Shown: positions 7,406 to 13,129, numbered from the stretch's first letter. The stretch is 64,000 bases of DNA from Candidatus Hermodarchaeum yapensis (GCA_016840405.1 JAEOSK010000001.1:64001-128000); one strand, 5' to 3'. Notes: generated from the letters alone by a model not told the origin. Program-made: numbers and translations.

Positions 7406-8581
7406 GTGCTGCTATACATGTCAACACAGAAGAATTGGATTCTCGTTCTAATCCCCCTGGTCTTGGCCTCAGTAATCACACCTGTAACCAGCACCCACTT
7501 TACACCCATTCAAGATCGTGATTATTGGCCCACCGCTGGATGGCGAATACAACCACCTGAATCTCAAGGAATGAATTCTACTCGACTAGACGAATTTTGG
7601 AATCACATACACCCAATAGATGGACTAACAGGTTTTCTGCTAATCCGTAATGGATACCTGTTGTATGAAGCTTACTGGCCAAACTTAGGACCAGACACTC
7701 TTGGGACAGTAGCATCAATTACCAAAAGCATTTCCGCAACAATCCTCGGTGCTGCGATAGCAGATGGTTATGTCACAAGCGTCAATGATTCGGTCTTGGA
7801 CTATTTTACAGACCGAACTATTGCAAACCCGAGTCCACAGAAAGACGCTATGACCATATGGCATTTGCTCACGATGTCCTCGGGATTTGAGTCTAGTGCA
7901 CAAACAATGGGATTGGCGCCAGACTGGATTCAGTATGTCCTCGATTTACCAATGGTCAACGATCCAGGAGCGGTTTGGAACTATGATGCTGGTTGTTCAC
8001 ATCTCATCTCGGCAATCATTTCCCAAACCACAGGTATGTCTATGGCGACGTATGCTCAAGCTCGGGTTTTGGGACCGATGGGAATCTCGGTTTATGAATG
8101 GCCCACAGATCCACAAGGAATAACAACGGGATTTGGAGGGCTAGAATTAAAATTACGAGACTTAGCAAAATTTGGCTACCTATTCTTGAATAATGGTACC
8201 TGGGGTCCTTTTCAAATTATACCCACAGAATGGGTGGCGGCCTGCACTCACTCATACTTTAATTTCACTATTGATGGTTATGGGTACCAGTGGTGGGTTG
8301 ATCCAGAACTCTCTGGATATTCCATGCGTGGGGCTGGTGGAAAGCGAGTTTTTATTCTTCCTGAACAAGACCTTGTACTCGTCTTTGCTGGAGCTACCAC
8401 CTATAGCATTTTAGACTTCTATTCGCTCTTCGAGGAATTTCTTTATCCCGCCATCATCGGAGATACCACTAGTTTACAGCAACCCGTTCAAGAGCAGGTT
8501 TTACCATTCGTGCTCGTACTCCTGATAATCATCATCCCACTTGTCGTAGGAACCAAGTACATACAAAGAAAACGGTCCTAA
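7406..8581 (+). CDS. beta-lactamase class C-like serine hydrolase, membrane-anchored (paralogue 3)
   Basis: SITKS, WNYDAG, same architecture; likely start ATG 7418. Confidence 0.9.
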   Translation: MLLYMSTQKNWILVLIPLVLASVITPVTSTHFTPIQDRDYWPTAGWRIQPPESQGMNSTRLDEFWNHIHPIDGLTGFLLIRNGYLLYEAYWPNLGPDTLGTVASITKSISATILGAAIADGYVTSVNDSVLDYFTDRTIANPSPQKDAMTIWHLLTMSSGFESSAQTMGLAPDWIQYVLDLPMVNDPGAVWNYDAGCSHLISAIISQTTGMSMATYAQARVLGPMGISVYEWPTDPQGITTGFGGLELKLRDLAKFGYLFLNNGTWGPFQIIPTEWVAACTHSYFNFTIDGYGYQWWVDPELSGYSMRGAGGKRVFILPEQDLVLVFAGATTYSILDFYSLFEEFLYPAIIGDTTSLQQPVQEQVLPFVLVLLIIIIPLVVGTKYIQRKRS

Positions 8582-8737
8582 AACACAATTGATACTGTTC
8601 AGTATATCGGAACGAATACGTCGCCTACTCTAGATGTGTAAAAACCTTTTTCTGCGCCCCCTCCAAACCTTGATTGAAGCCAAGGCGACAGACTCCTTAC
8701 GGTCGACTCAAGTTCCTTTGCTAGAAGGTGTGTTAGT

Positions 8738-9757
8738 ATCCCTCGTGGGCTAGTTCTCAGTCATTGGGACACCAAAGAAGGACTCAAGATACTAGCCAAT
8801 TATCCGGCATCCTTAGAAATTGATGCCGAACAACTTTCGATGATGTTTTTCAACTGCGCTCCCGAAGAATCAGAGCATATTTTCAAAGTCTTTCCTTCAA
8901 AGGATGTAACAGAGCGCGCAGCAGTAGCTTGCACCAGAAGTCTGCGTGATGGCATCGAAGATGATATCTTCATTACTGCACTCCTCACCGCCGAGGAAGA
9001 AGGATCTGTGTACGAAGAAATCCTCACCGCTACACTTCAACGGCTCCTAAAATTGAAAGGCGATCCGGTAAAAAAGCAACGCAGGTATCGTCAAATCCTC
9101 TCTGACAGTTATCGAAAAATCGAACGCCGTGGGGGCTCACGCGACCGCTCTCTCTGTCCTTACATGTATGAACGACCCATAAGAGACGATGAGATTACAT
9201 CCTTCTGTCGTGTTGTCAAAAAACAATGCTATCTCACCATCTATGAAATGCCCGGGTATCCCCAATGTCCGCGATATATTCGCCGTCAACGACAAATCCA
9301 ACTTGCCAACGCCCGTCAACTGGTACGTGCAGGTATCCAGCGTATCCTTGAAGACCACGACCAACAACGTCAAGACGCTAAACACCATAAACCAGGTACC
9401 TGGAGCGAACCCATTCATACAATTCTTGATCGCGTTTTTGCTGTCCTCAGTCTGTCAGAAAAAACCGAAGATCTCTCCCATAATATCGTCGAACACGTCG
9501 GGAAAGAAGGGCTTTTTCAGGGGCATCCTCGCCCCATTGTTGCTGCTTCTATCGCCTATTATGCTGCAAAACAGACTGGCGACTCTCTACCCGAAAATGA
9601 TATAATCGAACTCGTCGGATGTTCTCGTACTTCCCTACGCCGAAACTACCGGGAACTTCGAAGCCTTCTCGGCTCTGATATAAAGAAACTCCCCATGCAA
9701 AAACCACGGCGGCGACGTACAAGCACCCAAGATAAAGCGGTTACTCGCGCTGAATAA
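8738..9757 (+). CDS. longin/uDENN-like domain + Cys4 motif + TFIIB cyclin-like domain protein (start extended upstream of the track's 8840)
   Basis: Frame is open upstream of 8840 to TGA 8675 and reads IPRGLVLSHWDTKEGLKILANYP, homologous to MPHGLSVCRWDDKVGLRIVGVYP of 10846. C-terminus GHPRPIVAASIAYYAA..GDSLPENDIIELVGCSRTSLRRNYREL resembles a TFIIB repeat. CPY..FC..QCY..QCPRY lies in the middle. Confidence 0.7.
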   Translation: MPRGLVLSHWDTKEGLKILANYPASLEIDAEQLSMMFFNCAPEESEHIFKVFPSKDVTERAAVACTRSLRDGIEDDIFITALLTAEEEGSVYEEILTATLQRLLKLKGDPVKKQRRYRQILSDSYRKIERRGGSRDRSLCPYMYERPIRDDEITSFCRVVKKQCYLTIYEMPGYPQCPRYIRRQRQIQLANARQLVRAGIQRILEDHDQQRQDAKHHKPGTWSEPIHTILDRVFAVLSLSEKTEDLSHNIVEHVGKEGLFQGHPRPIVAASIAYYAAKQTGDSLPENDIIELVGCSRTSLRRNYRELRSLLGSDIKKLPMQKPRRRRTSTQDKAVTRAE

Positions 9758-9778
9758 ACAACAAGGAGAACACAACAT

Positions 9779-10648
9779 ATGATTCACAATGTCTTCATCA
9801 TGAACCGTGACGGACGTATCGCCTTCCACCGCCAATACTGGTCAGTTGATATTACCACCGAAATCCGCCAAGAATTCATTGCCACCTACAAACACTTCGA
9901 AAAGGACCTGGGTCCCACCGTCGACCTTCCAATCCACGTTAAAAACAATAAATTCCTCTACACCGATCTGGGCACCCACCTTCTCCTTGTCTTCGCGGTC
10001 GATACCAGCGACGAAGATGAAACCATCCGTGAATACCTCAAAAAAACCCGTGAACTTCTCATCACTAAATACAGCCACGAAATCGACTCATACATCCAAA
10101 ACCCCGTTCCCCTTGGCCAAGCCTTTCAAGAATTCGCCAAAGAACTTGACAGCGTTATCGTCACCATGCTCAAAATCTGCCTCCTCGGACAAGGCGGCGT
10201 CGGCAAATCTACCATGCTCAAACTCCTCACCGCTGACAGCATCCCTGGCGAATACTACCCCACGATTGCGGTCGACATCGAAACCCTCCAAGGCGTCCGA
10301 TTTGGTCCCTATGAATTGGCGGTCTGGGATTTTGCAGGTCAAGACCGCTTCCGTTCACTCTGGAACTATTATCTCCGTAATGCCGATGCCGTATTGTTAG
10401 TAACCGATTCGACGTTGAAGAATGTGCTCGAAACCCGCGACATTCTTGAGGTTGTACGGAAAAACGCGCCTTCCTCAATTGTCTGGTCGATTGCAAACAA
10501 ACAGGATCTCCCCGGAGCACTAGCTCCGAAACTGGTTCAACGTATTCTCGGTGTTCAATCCTACGGGCTAGTAGCAATTGATCCCCGGTATCGCGAAGTG
10601 CTTTATAAGATAATTCTCGGGGCTGTAGCTGAAGCGACTACGGACTAG
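9779..10648 (+). CDS. longin domain-small GTPase (Arf/Rab-like) fusion
   Basis: N-terminal MIHNVFIMNRDGRIAFHRQY longin start; G1 GQGGVGKST, G2 YYPT, G3 WDFAGQ, G4 NKQD; SD AAGGAG upstream. Confidence 0.88.
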   Translation: MIHNVFIMNRDGRIAFHRQYWSVDITTEIRQEFIATYKHFEKDLGPTVDLPIHVKNNKFLYTDLGTHLLLVFAVDTSDEDETIREYLKKTRELLITKYSHEIDSYIQNPVPLGQAFQEFAKELDSVIVTMLKICLLGQGGVGKSTMLKLLTADSIPGEYYPTIAVDIETLQGVRFGPYELAVWDFAGQDRFRSLWNYYLRNADAVLLVTDSTLKNVLETRDILEVVRKNAPSSIVWSIANKQDLPGALAPKLVQRILGVQSYGLVAIDPRYREVLYKIILGAVAEATTD

Positions 10649-10845
10649 AACTCACTTATGCCATCGTACAATATGCCTGCTTTGTTGTGAAAAATTGCGG
10701 AAAGCAATACGGTAAACCTTACCTTGTAAGGAGTCGGCAAACAAGTTAAATACGGGAATCTGAATAGTCAAAAAGGAGTGCCAATAGGTCACTTTAAGTA
10801 ATAAAGCTACAGAAACCATTTGAATAAACGGGAGGCTAAGTAAAA

Positions 10846-12444
10846 ATGCCACACGGATTAAGTGTATGTAGATGGGACGATAAAGTAGGTCTCCGCATTG
10901 TGGGAGTGTATCCGCGTAATCTTGGTGTGTCCGAAGATGACATGTTGCGTGTGTTTACGGCGCATGCGATGGGCAAACCGGAAGCGGGTTTTTTGACGAT
11001 GACTCTTGAGGGGACGAATCTGGCGGTGGCCTCGTTTTATACGGGCATTTTGCGGGGTCGGGACCAGTTTTGTATTATGTTGTTTATGGAGCTCGATGAA
11101 GAGCCCCGAAGTTATGAAGAGGGTTTGACATTAGCGTCAAGTGAGATTGTCGAAAATATTGGTGAACCAGAGTTTGTAGAATACATGGGTGAAGTGTTTG
11201 AGAAACTGAAGCGGATGGTGGAACTGTCTGTAGAGCAGCGACTTGCCAAGGTGTTTGTTGATCATGAGACGCGGTTATTGATGCATAAGCTAGCCCGCGG
11301 TGGCATCCCTGCTGAAGAGTTGCGAGAGTGGCTAGAGTTACAGACTGGGAAACACTACCCTGATTTAGGTCTAGTTACCTTACCGTTACTGCGGAGCGGG
11401 TTAGTAGAAGAAGACTGGATTAATGCAGTCTCAGACAACTGTGTTTTCTTGGTGAATGACCTGTTGGGCGCGCGGTTTCCACCCGAGCAAGTGATCAAAC
11501 TGGCCAAGGGTGGCGGATTGAATAAGGAACAGTTACGCGAACTCGAAACCCGAGTGAAGAGCTTCTTTGAAGGGTATCAGTGGACGGAAGAAGACACCAT
11601 CATGATGGGGCAGCTGCTTCTTGACCCAGATATTTACGATGTGACAAAGACGTTGCGTCGGAAAATTACGCATAAATCCGAGTTAGCTGGTGTCGTCGAA
11701 AAAGAAGCCTCCCTTGATAATGTGCTTCGGCGATTAGAACAGGCACAAGTGATTACAAAATTTGGAGCGAATGCCATCGAGGTAGCAGCTAAAGATGATC
11801 CGCTGATTGTATTAATGGCGGATGTACACTTCGAATCTTTCTTCCCAGAGTTCTTGGTTTTACGAATTCAAGAGCGACTCGAGGCAAAGGATATTCATCC
11901 GGATATCGCAAAACGGCATCTTGAGTTACTCAGTGAAACGTACATGCGTATGCGTGAGAAGATGAAGGAACGCAAGAAGCGGAAAGAGGAAGAAGAGAAA
12001 GCCGAGGAAGAACTCCCTGAAATGGAAGGGGAAATGGTACCTCCTCCTGAACCAGCAGAAATTGAAACTCCTGAGGTCCTCGAATCGGCGCCCGCTGACG
12101 AAGAAGAAGCTAAGCGAATTAAAAAAGAAGAAGAGATAGCGCGAAAAGAGGAACAGAAGCGGCTCAAAGAAGAGGAAAAGCGTCTAAAGGCTGAAGAGAA
12201 ACAGAAGAAGAAAGACGAAGAAAAGGCGCAGAAAGAGGAAGAGAAGAAGCGTAAGGAAGAGGAGAAGCAGAAGAAGAAGGAAGAGGAACAGAAGCGTAAG
12301 GAAGAGGAGAAGCGCCTGAAGGAAGAGGAGAAGCAGAAGAAGAAGGAAGAGGAACAGAAGCGTAAGGAAGAGGAAAAGAAACGCAAAGAAGAAGAGAAGC
12401 AAAAGAAGAAGGAAGAGAAGAAAAAAGAGAAGGAATCCTCTTAG
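10846..12444 (+). CDS. longin/uDENN-like domain protein with probable winged-helix middle region and E/K-rich single-alpha-helix tail
   Basis: N-terminal GL...WDDKVG....YP longin-like motif; helical middle; C-terminal ~105 aa of E/K/R repeats; SD GGAGG. Confidence 0.75.
   Translation: MPHGLSVCRWDDKVGLRIVGVYPRNLGVSEDDMLRVFTAHAMGKPEAGFLTMTLEGTNLAVASFYTGILRGRDQFCIMLFMELDEEPRSYEEGLTLASSEIVENIGEPEFVEYMGEVFEKLKRMVELSVEQRLAKVFVDHETRLLMHKLARGGIPAEELREWLELQTGKHYPDLGLVTLPLLRSGLVEEDWINAVSDNCVFLVNDLLGARFPPEQVIKLAKGGGLNKEQLRELETRVKSFFEGYQWTEEDTIMMGQLLLDPDIYDVTKTLRRKITHKSELAGVVEKEASLDNVLRRLEQAQVITKFGANAIEVAAKDDPLIVLMADVHFESFFPEFLVLRIQERLEAKDIHPDIAKRHLELLSETYMRMREKMKERKKRKEEEEKAEEELPEMEGEMVPPPEPAEIETPEVLESAPADEEEAKRIKKEEEIARKEEQKRLKEEEKRLKAEEKQKKKDEEKAQKEEEKKRKEEEKQKKKEEEQKRKEEEKRLKEEEKQKKKEEEQKRKEEEKKRKEEEKQKKKEEKKKEKESS
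12253..12374 (+). repeat. 56-bp perfect direct repeat (66-bp period) inside the E/K-rich coding tail
   Basis: 12253-12308 equals 12319-12374. Confidence 0.85.
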
Positions 12445-12463
12445 GCTCTCAATTCATAGCTCT

Positions 12464-13129
12464 TCAATCTTTGAATGTCTGTTGACGGTGTGCAGCACTG
12501 ATACTACGTGCTGTTTCCCACGTTTTTCGTACAATATCAGGAAACGTGTTATGTGTTCTAATCCAATCACGTAGGAATTTTCTGGTTTTGGGATCATTTG
12601 GGTATCCACTACCGAAGTCTCCATAGTTTCGATGAAGTTCGCGAATTCGCATGTCGCGGCGAACTTTGGCTAAAACGGAGGCGGCAGCAACAACTGGGTA
12701 GGCAGAATCGGCTTTGTGTTCACTCACAACTTTGTTCTTTGCTTTTAATTGTGCAGAAATTAGTCGTCCGTAACGTTCTGCATTGACATCGGAGGCATCG
12801 ACATATGCAATATCCCAGTTCAGCTGGTTCAGAACTTGAGCCATCCATTGGGCTTCTAAAATGTTGAGACTGCGCCGTTGTTCCCGTTGGGTATCAATTT
12901 CTTTTGCACTGATTTCAAGGATTTCGACTTGACTTGCTAGTTGTTGAATTCTTTGTTCGAGGGTTTCTCGCCGTCGGGGCGTTAATTGTTTGGAATCTCT
13001 AACTCCCCACTCAATGAGTGCGTCTTCCTGTGAAGGTTCTATTACAATGCCTGCGATGACGAGTGGACCTATGACGGGTCCTCGACCTGCTTCATCAATC
13101 CCTGCAATTCGTTGCGTCAATCCCAACAC
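12464..13129 (-). CDS. rnhB: ribonuclease HII
   Basis: IAGIDEAGRGPVIGPLV, DSKQL, KAD..YPVVAAASVLAKV.RD, GSGYPNDP. Confidence 0.97.
   Translation of the reverse strand: MLGLTQRIAGIDEAGRGPVIGPLVIAGIVIEPSQEDALIEWGVRDSKQLTPRRRETLEQRIQQLASQVEILEISAKEIDTQREQRRSLNILEAQWMAQVLNQLNWDIAYVDASDVNAERYGRLISAQLKAKNKVVSEHKADSAYPVVAAASVLAKVRRDMRIRELHRNYGDFGSGYPNDPKTRKFLRDWIRTHNTFPDIVRKTWETARSISAAHRQQTFKD

Follow-up and report, generated by a model that had tools for sequence, protein, structure and literature searches.

In eukaryotes, the longin-domain pairs NPRL2-NPRL3, FLCN-FNIP and C9orf72-SMCR8 form GTPase-activating protein (GAP) complexes with a catalytic heterodimer, and the asymmetric pairs NPRL2/NPRL3 and FLCN/FNIP carry an arginine finger (Arg78 of NPRL2 and Arg164 of FLCN). 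The genomes of Asgard archaea contain dozens of genes for small GTPases and longin/roadblock proteins, and we know of no cellular output that has been assigned to any member of either group in these organisms. Here we describe a locus of three genes in Candidatus Hermodarchaeum yapensis (GCA_016840405.1, JAEOSK010000001.1:64001-128000), in which a longin-GTPase (gene 2) is encoded between two proteins with paralogous N-terminal longin domains (genes 1 and 3), one of them (gene 1) fused to a domain best read as the core of an archaeal transcription factor B (TFB). The layout of the locus suggests a small-GTPase switch wired to gene regulation. The stretch analysed, hereafter the window, is 64,000 nucleotides long and lies in contig C14 of an Asgard metagenome-assembled genome (MAG) of 2.7 Mb that is 86% complete; positions are counted from its first letter.

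Asgard longins of the 'Folliculin/SMCR8 type' have been described mainly from Heimdallarchaeia (PMC12290439), and a preprint reports that Thor and Loki MAGs contain longin families resembling NPRL2 (bioRxiv 10.1101/2020.10.19.343400). Longin-GTPase fusions of the Rag/Arf-like kind have already been described in Asgard archaea in a further study (PMC10933270). The longin fusions mentioned in the text read of these two reports are to two-component-system domains, and a TFB cyclin repeat does not figure in them (bioRxiv 10.1101/2020.10.19.343400; PMC10933270). According to the latter study, pairing a GTPase with its regulator from gene order is rarely possible in Asgard archaea, and in the cultured Lokiarchaeon MK-D1 small-GTPase genes generally lie outside longin/roadblock operons (PMC10933270). 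The present locus differs from MK-D1 in this respect, since the longin gene 1 adjoins the GTPase gene 2 in an operon-like manner.

The three open reading frames (ORFs) are co-oriented on the plus strand between positions 8738 and 12444. Gene 1 (8738..9757; 339 aa, ATC start) encodes a longin domain, a segment with four cysteines, a long helix, one TFB-type cyclin repeat and a basic tail. Gene 2 (9779..10648; 289 aa) combines a probable adaptor-type longin (residues 1-125) with an Arf/Rag-like small GTPase (residues 126-289), and gene 3 (10846..12444; 532 aa) encodes a longin, two winged helices, a C-terminal helix and an ER/K-rich tail. All features placed here by a first-pass annotation, made by a model from the sequence, were found at the coordinates that it gave. 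We favour, at a probability of roughly 45%, a Hermodarchaeota-specific module in which the longins of genes 1 and 3 would form a heterodimer that regulates the gene 2 GTPase and the TFB-derived domain would provide a DNA-directed output.

The closest described system is GATOR1, in which NPRL2-NPRL3 (Npr2-Npr3 in yeast) is the GAP for RagA/Gtr1. Here too, the genes for two paralogous longin proteins accompany one for an Arf/Rag-like GTPase; NPRL2 is the top-scoring eukaryotic longin match of both genes 1 and 3 (Z 13.1), and gene 3 has the same domain order, a longin followed by tandem four-helix winged helices. A conserved arginine in or near the beta4-beta5 loop of one paralogue (gene 1) has a glycine as its counterpart in the other (gene 3). 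There are also differences: neither paralogue has detectable similarity to the Pfam families NPR2 and NPR3, gene 1 has a TFB-derived domain in place of winged helices, and the longin of gene 2 is N-terminal, whereas Rag GTPases carry a C-terminal roadblock. The heterodimer and the GAP activity are what we infer here by comparison. C9orf72-SMCR8, FLCN-FNIP and the Asgard Folliculin/SMCR8-type longins (PMC12290439) share the longin fold with genes 1 and 3 at Z scores of 9-11. In genes 1 and 3 the beta1-beta2 turn carries a WDxxxG motif with the C9orf72 spacing, and a relative in another Asgard genome (G004) has the full WDDATGP; genes 1 and 3 differ from these proteins in being without DENN and in having Leu for the Pro of the GP motif.

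As for archaeal TFB and eukaryotic TFIIB, residues 214-316 of gene 1 form a cyclin box that aligns to TFB repeat 2 as far as the TFB C-terminus, with the helix-turn-helix (HTH) and its arginine kept. The protein differs from them in having a single intact repeat, in being without zinc ribbon, B-reader and B-linker, and in scoring below the Pfam and NCBIfam cut-offs. No description of a longin-TFB fusion was found in the literature searched on longin, TFIIB/TFB and archaea, in agreement with the first-pass remark that no characterised example of the fusion is known. For genes 2 and 3, Asgard archaea have described counterparts; what appears to be undescribed is the longin-TFB fusion, together with the operon that it forms with the longin-GTPase and the conserved AUY start codon of gene 1.

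Longin domains, winged helices and the GTPase

At their N-termini, genes 1 and 3 share 25% identity over 130 residues (E 2e-8), as expected of the shared domain that had been proposed for them, and the own genome contains only two copies of this longin type, the two that flank the gene 2 GTPase. In order to characterise the folds, AlphaFold2 models (predicted local distance difference test score, pLDDT, of 93.8 for residues 1-380 of gene 3 and of 78 for gene 1) were compared with solved structures in VIA fold searches, from which the Z scores given here are taken; Foldseek agreed for the gene 3 longin. Residues 1-126 of gene 3 matched NPRL2 best (Z 13.1, root mean square deviation (rmsd) 2.5 Å over 123 residues), followed by the Lokiarchaeal longin 8yqg (Z 12.7), Lst4 (Z 11.9), Npr2/3 of the SEA complex (Z 11.8) and FLCN/FNIP2 (Z about 11). 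The gene 1 longin (8738..9142, plus strand; residues 1-135) gave a similar picture, with residues 1-139 matching the Lokiarchaeal longin 8yqg_B at Z 13.7 and NPRL2 (8fw5_B) at Z 13.1. In both proteins the beta-beta-alpha-beta-beta-beta-alpha-alpha fold superposes on solved longins, and, as judged from the models, the two N-termini are longins of the NPRL2/FLCN/Lst4 kind.

The first-pass annotation had called the two proteins 'longin/uDENN-like'. The longin part of this label stands; the DENN part does not, as the gene 3 model shows winged helices after the longin, not the alpha/beta core of DENN, and DENND1 and DENND10 match gene 3 via the longin part only. We therefore rejected a DENN reading.

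Residues W10, D11 and G15 are conserved in the families of both genes, with residue 16 being Leu in each. In C9orf72, W33-D34 and G38-P39 are essential (PMC12290439); the W10-D11-x3-G15 motif has exactly this spacing, and only the Pro of the GP pair is missing. In gene 1, R60 is invariant and R67 nearly so, both in or near the beta4-beta5 loop, and position 67 in the gene 3 family is almost always Gly. By analogy, the gene 1 R67 is a candidate for an arginine finger, and the R67/Gly contrast recalls the NPRL2/NPRL3 and FLCN/FNIP pairs. A short and a long member of this longin type also stand side by side in genome G004, from a different Asgard family: directly upstream of a full-length member of 362 aa with a longin and two winged helices (L031 1525-2613; also L032) lies a paralogue of 160 aa that consists of the longin only and has the full WDDATGP motif (L031 2873-3355), a pair resembling genes 1 and 3.

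The gene 3 model comprises the longin (residues 1-126), winged helix 1 (127-212), winged helix 2 (247-333), a helix (335-379) and a tail (381-532), all on the plus strand. The two winged-helix units, of four helices and three strands each, span residues 129-211 and 248-332 of the model; the second matches the winged helices of Phr and SqrR (Z 8.6-8.8), and members of the gene 3 family weakly match HTH_20, TFIIE_alpha and TrmB. NPRL2 and NPRL3 are built of a longin and two or more four-helix, two-strand winged HTH domains (PMC3747258), and the gene 3 model has this order of a longin followed by two winged helices. In the ESM Atlas the nearest non-archaeal shapes to gene 3 are NPRL2 and C9orf72, together with a Heimdall cluster partly annotated as Folliculin. 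The tail (11986-12441) is ER/K-rich, is encoded by 66-nt tandem repeats and is probably a single alpha-helix; it varies in length among orthologues, in which the whole protein has 415-553 aa.

The distribution survey covered 400 Asgard genomes, 19 of which form one Hermodarchaeota family with two genera. The 370-residue core of longin and two winged helices is present in 310 of the 400, often in at least four copies, and falls into 246 clusters at 50% identity. The same module is C-terminal in giant proteins of 1,330-2,548 aa, one of which has Laminin_G_3-like domains (P0100, P0112, P0117, P0118, P0127, P0139, P0154, P0186), and N-terminal in SIR2-like + TPR proteins. The closest Lokiarchaeal homologue of gene 3 (L079, RDOG01000009.1; 583 aa with a tail) follows the genes for ribosomal proteins L11-L1-L10-P1 and has a 458-aa Arf/RagA-like GTPase encoded two genes downstream.

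For gene 2, the first-pass annotation had proposed a longin fused to an intact small GTPase, 21 nt downstream of gene 1. The spacing and the GTPase were borne out: GQGGVGKS, T162, WDFAGQ188, NKQD and A266 are invariant in 42 homologues, so that the motifs G1-G5 are intact; the Pfam Roc, Arf and Ras profiles match above their cut-offs (E 1e-17 to 1e-21), and the closest match in the Protein Data Bank (PDB) is Arf1 (E 1e-18). The catalytic Gln is present, as in Arf and Rag. The longin half is suggested by profile: the N-terminal 125 residues matched the AP-3 mu1 N-domain (E 5e-4), AP-4 sigma (E 0.008), MglB (E 0.011) and the Pfam family Clat_adaptor_s (E 0.06), matches which point to an adaptor-type longin. 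Five longin-GTPase fusions are encoded in the own genome. The second genus (L048-L051, L096-L099) has a further longin-GTPase paralogue, which shares about 41% identity with gene 2, immediately ahead of gene 1, and in one genome of the first genus (L087) such a paralogue sits 3.3 kb upstream of gene 1; this doubling recalls the paired Rag GTPases.

A TFB-type repeat in gene 1

In structures of TFB-TBP-DNA complexes (TBP, TATA-binding protein), repeat 2 of TFB carries the HTH that reads the TFB recognition element (BRE), and repeat 1 makes the main contact to TBP. The roles that we assign to the repeats in gene 1 rest on this general knowledge. The own genome encodes six or seven canonical two-repeat TFBs (contigs C10, C18, C40, C65, C73 and C8, with two in tandem on C73), which served for comparison.

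The cyclin box of gene 1 (9377..9685, plus strand; residues 214-316) matched TFIIB at Z 13.2 and TFB at Z 12.7 in the VIA search with the AlphaFold2 model, and superposed on 1d3u_B with an rmsd of 1.2 Å over 87 columns at 23% identity in Foldseek. At the level of sequence profiles the Pfam TFIIB family reached E 0.0022 (18.4 bits, below the curated cut-off of 23.6) and the NCBIfam TFIIB model E 5e-5 (positions 224-310 of 312, also below cut-off). In hhalign comparisons with the TFBs of the own genome, residues ~225-317 corresponded to repeat 2, with the match extending to the C-terminus of TFB (87% probability, E 4e-6), and the gene 1 family profile also matches repeat 2 of Pyrococcus TFB. The HTH (residues 286-311; 9593-9670) includes the invariant residues E291, L292, G294, C295, S296, T298, L300, R301, R302 and N303, and retains an Arg aligned to the recognition-helix Arg of TFB.

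Upstream of the cyclin box lies the four-Cys segment with its long basic helix (9149..9376, plus strand), which comprises C140, C157, C164 and C177, a beta hairpin and a helix at residues 178-213. The four cysteines, invariant among 17 homologues, are spaced C-x16-C-x6-C-x12-C, unlike two CxxC knuckles, and in the AlphaFold2 model they sit in a predicted beta hairpin that is followed by the long helix. This segment is the most constrained part of gene 1 (pN/pS 0.13). The four-Cys motif and the single TFIIB-like repeat with HTH, both noted in the first-pass annotation, are confirmed. With low confidence, hhalign aligned the four-Cys segment with remnants of repeat 1 (RGRS/RGGSR, C-x-Y/CPY, SRVGRKE/CRVVKKQ), so that it is possibly a remodelled TFB repeat 1.

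The zinc ribbon, B-reader and B-linker of TFB/TFIIB are not present in gene 1, the N-terminus of which is the longin. Gene 1 is therefore best read as a TFB core in which the N-terminal parts were replaced by a longin and the first repeat was remodelled. Judging by its domain content, the protein cannot be an initiation factor and could bind DNA. The first-pass statement that the C-terminal TFIIB/TFB repeat binds TBP and BRE DNA needs refining: the retained repeat 2 is the one with the BRE-reading HTH, and the repeat making the main TBP contact is degenerate.

The proposed regulatory module and its alternatives

In the proposed module, the longins of genes 1 and 3 would pair edge to edge to form a platform on which the gene 2 GTPase docks, and the platform would alter, or read, the nucleotide state of the GTPase, with R67 of gene 1, facing the Gly of the gene 3 family, as the candidate arginine finger. 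The nucleotide state would then decide whether the basic TFB-like domain binds DNA, be it BRE-like sites or the conserved blocks of its own locus (see below). Being unable to recruit RNA polymerase, gene 1 would serve as a regulator or decoy rather than in initiation, and its conserved AUC/AUU start may hold it at a low or regulated level. Four points favour a functional unit: gene 1 and gene 2 are joined by a junction of 21-45 nt, the sole two longins of this type flank the GTPase, paired paralogues recur in genome G004, and eukaryotic GAPs of this kind are heterodimers. A stronger version, in which the small GTPase directly controls basal transcription through a GATOR1-like gene 1/3 heterodimer with an R67 finger, gene 1 being a nucleotide-gated TFB decoy or regulator on BRE-like DNA, is doubtful. 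Complex prediction with the gene 3 longin, full-length gene 2, the gene 1 longin and GTP scored 0.01 against a mark of 0.32, a value which speaks neither for nor against binding.

If the module is real, archaea had longin-heterodimer control of a GTPase of the kind seen in GATOR1 and folliculin, and such control could be linked to transcription; the stronger version would represent a prokaryotic forerunner of the eukaryotic Rag/GATOR/folliculin-to-transcription-factor logic and the first cellular output assigned to any Asgard longin-GTPase system. The locus offers a small, defined set that is open to testing: a single GTPase, two GAP-type longin paralogues and one domain whose DNA or TBP binding could be assayed. 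Even if the coupling is not real, the longin-TFB fusion documents the recycling of basal-factor paralogues into regulators.

The four-Cys and cyclin part of gene 1 was found in 19/19 Hermodarchaeota genomes and in 0/381 of the other Asgard genomes, save for weak matches to true TFBs. Throughout the family the gene 2 orthologue always comes next, 21-45 nt on; in the window the distance from the gene 1 stop to the gene 2 start is 21 nt, and AGGAG ahead of gene 2 serves as its own Shine-Dalgarno (SD) sequence. Owing to this short spacer and the SD of gene 2, genes 1 and 2 are almost certainly co-transcribed. Scanning for sigma-70 promoters and terminators yielded chance-level matches only, the sigma-70 model being unsuited to archaea.

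Several observations weigh against the proposed module. The order gene 1-gene 2-gene 3 is kept in every Hermodarchaeota genome whose contig spans the locus, so that the synteny check proposed in the first-pass annotation does find conserved linkage; this linkage is nevertheless weak and non-specific evidence, because the flanking genes for a hydrolase, RNase HII, DedA, an OB-fold protein and DNA ligase are unrelated and equally conserved in order, and the conservation may reflect close kinship only. Gene 3 is probably a separate transcript, as it starts 197 nt downstream of the gene 2 stop behind a conserved promoter-like region of its own, and homologues of gene 3 outside the Hermodarchaeota family have no GTPase gene within 1.5 kb. 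Searches of Pfam returned no family for gene 3 at E<=1 and neither NPR2 (PF06218) nor NPR3 (PF03666) at E<=0.1 for 55 members of its family, and a profile built from 58 N-domains gave only chance-level matches among PDB sequences, none of them to NPRL2, FLCN or C9orf72. Since a sequence-level link was not found, membership in the NPRL2, FLCN or C9orf72 families is not established, and our claim concerns the fold, the domain architecture and one short motif. With an isoelectric point (pI) of 4.7-5.2, the gene 3 winged helices are acidic, and a scaffold role is therefore likelier for them than DNA binding; cyclin boxes, too, are common as protein-protein modules.

The last two points are at the core of an explanation that is possible, albeit on the unlikely side, namely that the locus encodes a GATOR1- or folliculin-like GTPase complex without a link to transcription, in which the cyclin box and the winged helices are protein-protein scaffolds and the output is cytoplasmic or at the membrane. 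Acidic winged helices would fit the scaffold role known for NPRL2/3 (PMC3747258), cyclins match the gene 1 cyclin box nearly as well as TFIIB does (Z about 11-12 against 12.7-13.2), and the cyclin domain is near neutral (pI 6.65). Elsewhere, moreover, SIR2-like, TPR and giant non-DNA-binding proteins are the fusion partners of the longin and two-winged-helix module. However, the profiles pick TFIIB/TFB specifically, notably repeat 2 with its HTH as far as the end of TFB; no stretch is more invariant than the HTH, which has kept its recognition-helix Arg; and the segments adjoining the cyclin box are strongly basic, with a pI of 9.6 for the four-Cys/helix segment and of 11.8 for the C-terminal tail. 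These features argue against this explanation.

It is improbable that gene 1 is a stand-alone TFB-derived regulator, with the longin and cysteines serving for dimerisation or as a sensor (of metal, through an Fe-S cluster, or of redox state) and with incidental neighbours. In its favour, adjacency is uninformative where the whole region is syntenic, the four invariant cysteines lie in the most conserved segment, the number of TFB paralogues in the genome implies that TFB duplication and divergence are common here, and the conserved upstream blocks suggest autoregulation. Co-transcription with gene 2 speaks against it, as indicated by the 21-nt spacing, the SD and the lack of a terminator between the two genes. 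Likewise, the only other copy of this longin type is two genes away, the longin subtype of gene 1 is the one tied to GTPases, and gene 1 is never seen without genes 2 and 3.

Start codon of gene 1 and conserved non-coding regions

Between the stop codon at 8676-8678 and an ATG at 8840 there is no in-frame ATG, GTG or TTG in gene 1, and the conserved N-terminus IPRGLVLSHWDTKEGL is read from ATC 8738. The SD-like sequence GAAGGTG (8724..8730, plus strand) lies 7 nt ahead of this codon. Across the 19 genomes of the family the start codon is ATC in 14 and ATT in five, and AAGGTG or AGGTG is always found exactly 7 nt before it (L033-L051). In 14 genomes the TGA within GGTGA is an in-frame stop two codons upstream of the start. 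No canonical start is available in 18/19 genomes; the remaining one has an ATG two codons upstream, just 2 nt past the SD core. The lack of a canonical start leads gene callers to shorten the protein, and public calls of 303-305 aa are ~34 residues short. Codons 1-34 are nonetheless under purifying selection (pN/pS 0.28), the median dN/dS over the whole gene is ~0.08 and the frame is intact in 19/19 genomes. The choice of ATC 8738 in the first-pass annotation was right, and the AUY start is a conserved feature rather than an error. That gene 1 might be a decaying or mis-called ORF can be dismissed despite the missing ATG/GTG/TTG ahead of the conserved domain and an evolution faster than that of its neighbours (52-77% identity within the family, compared with 70-99% for genes 2 and 3), given the selection just described, the SD and ATY at a fixed distance of 7 nt and the invariant Cys and HTH residues; a pseudogene reading was rejected on these grounds.

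Bacterial infC has an AUU start codon. Both infC and gene 1 thus have a non-canonical AUY start that is kept in different species and preceded by a good SD, a combination suggestive of controlled or low translation; gene 1 differs in being archaeal and a different gene, and in being without evidence of autoregulation via an initiation factor. The AUC/AUU start of gene 1 is a clean case in which to study non-canonical initiation in archaea.

Upstream of gene 1, two blocks at 8598..8655 on the plus strand (8598-8612, TTCAGTATMTCGGAA; 8638-8655, GYAAAAACCTTTTTCTGC) are near-invariant in an alignment of 15 genomes, although synonymous divergence between genomes of this genus is 72% in the adjacent gene. 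The second block, GYAAAAACCTTTTTCTGC, is a near-palindrome (GYAAAAACC/TTTTTCTGC). The blocks are probably a promoter or operator. In a genome-wide search each block was unique in the own genome and matches were not above those of reversed-pattern controls; since they were no commoner than the controls, no regulon was inferred.

The second conserved region, of ~165 nt, precedes gene 3 (10680..10845, plus strand) and contains, in nine-genome alignments, TTGCGAAAAATTGCAGAAAGCAA, a hairpin, AAACAAGTTAAATACGGGAA, the TATA-like GGTCACTTTAA (CACTTTAA) and a GGGAG SD. The sequence of the hairpin varies among the nine genomes and its inverted repeat persists. An RNA element was not called here: RNAalifold found small hairpins only, with no compensatory pairs and no covariation support, and Rfam gave no match at E<=1 in 8500-12600. 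Half-sites of the TGC(A/G)(A/G)AAA type occur in both non-coding regions, which we regard as candidate operators. In one genome (G095) the region before gene 3 carries an insertion of ~580 bp.

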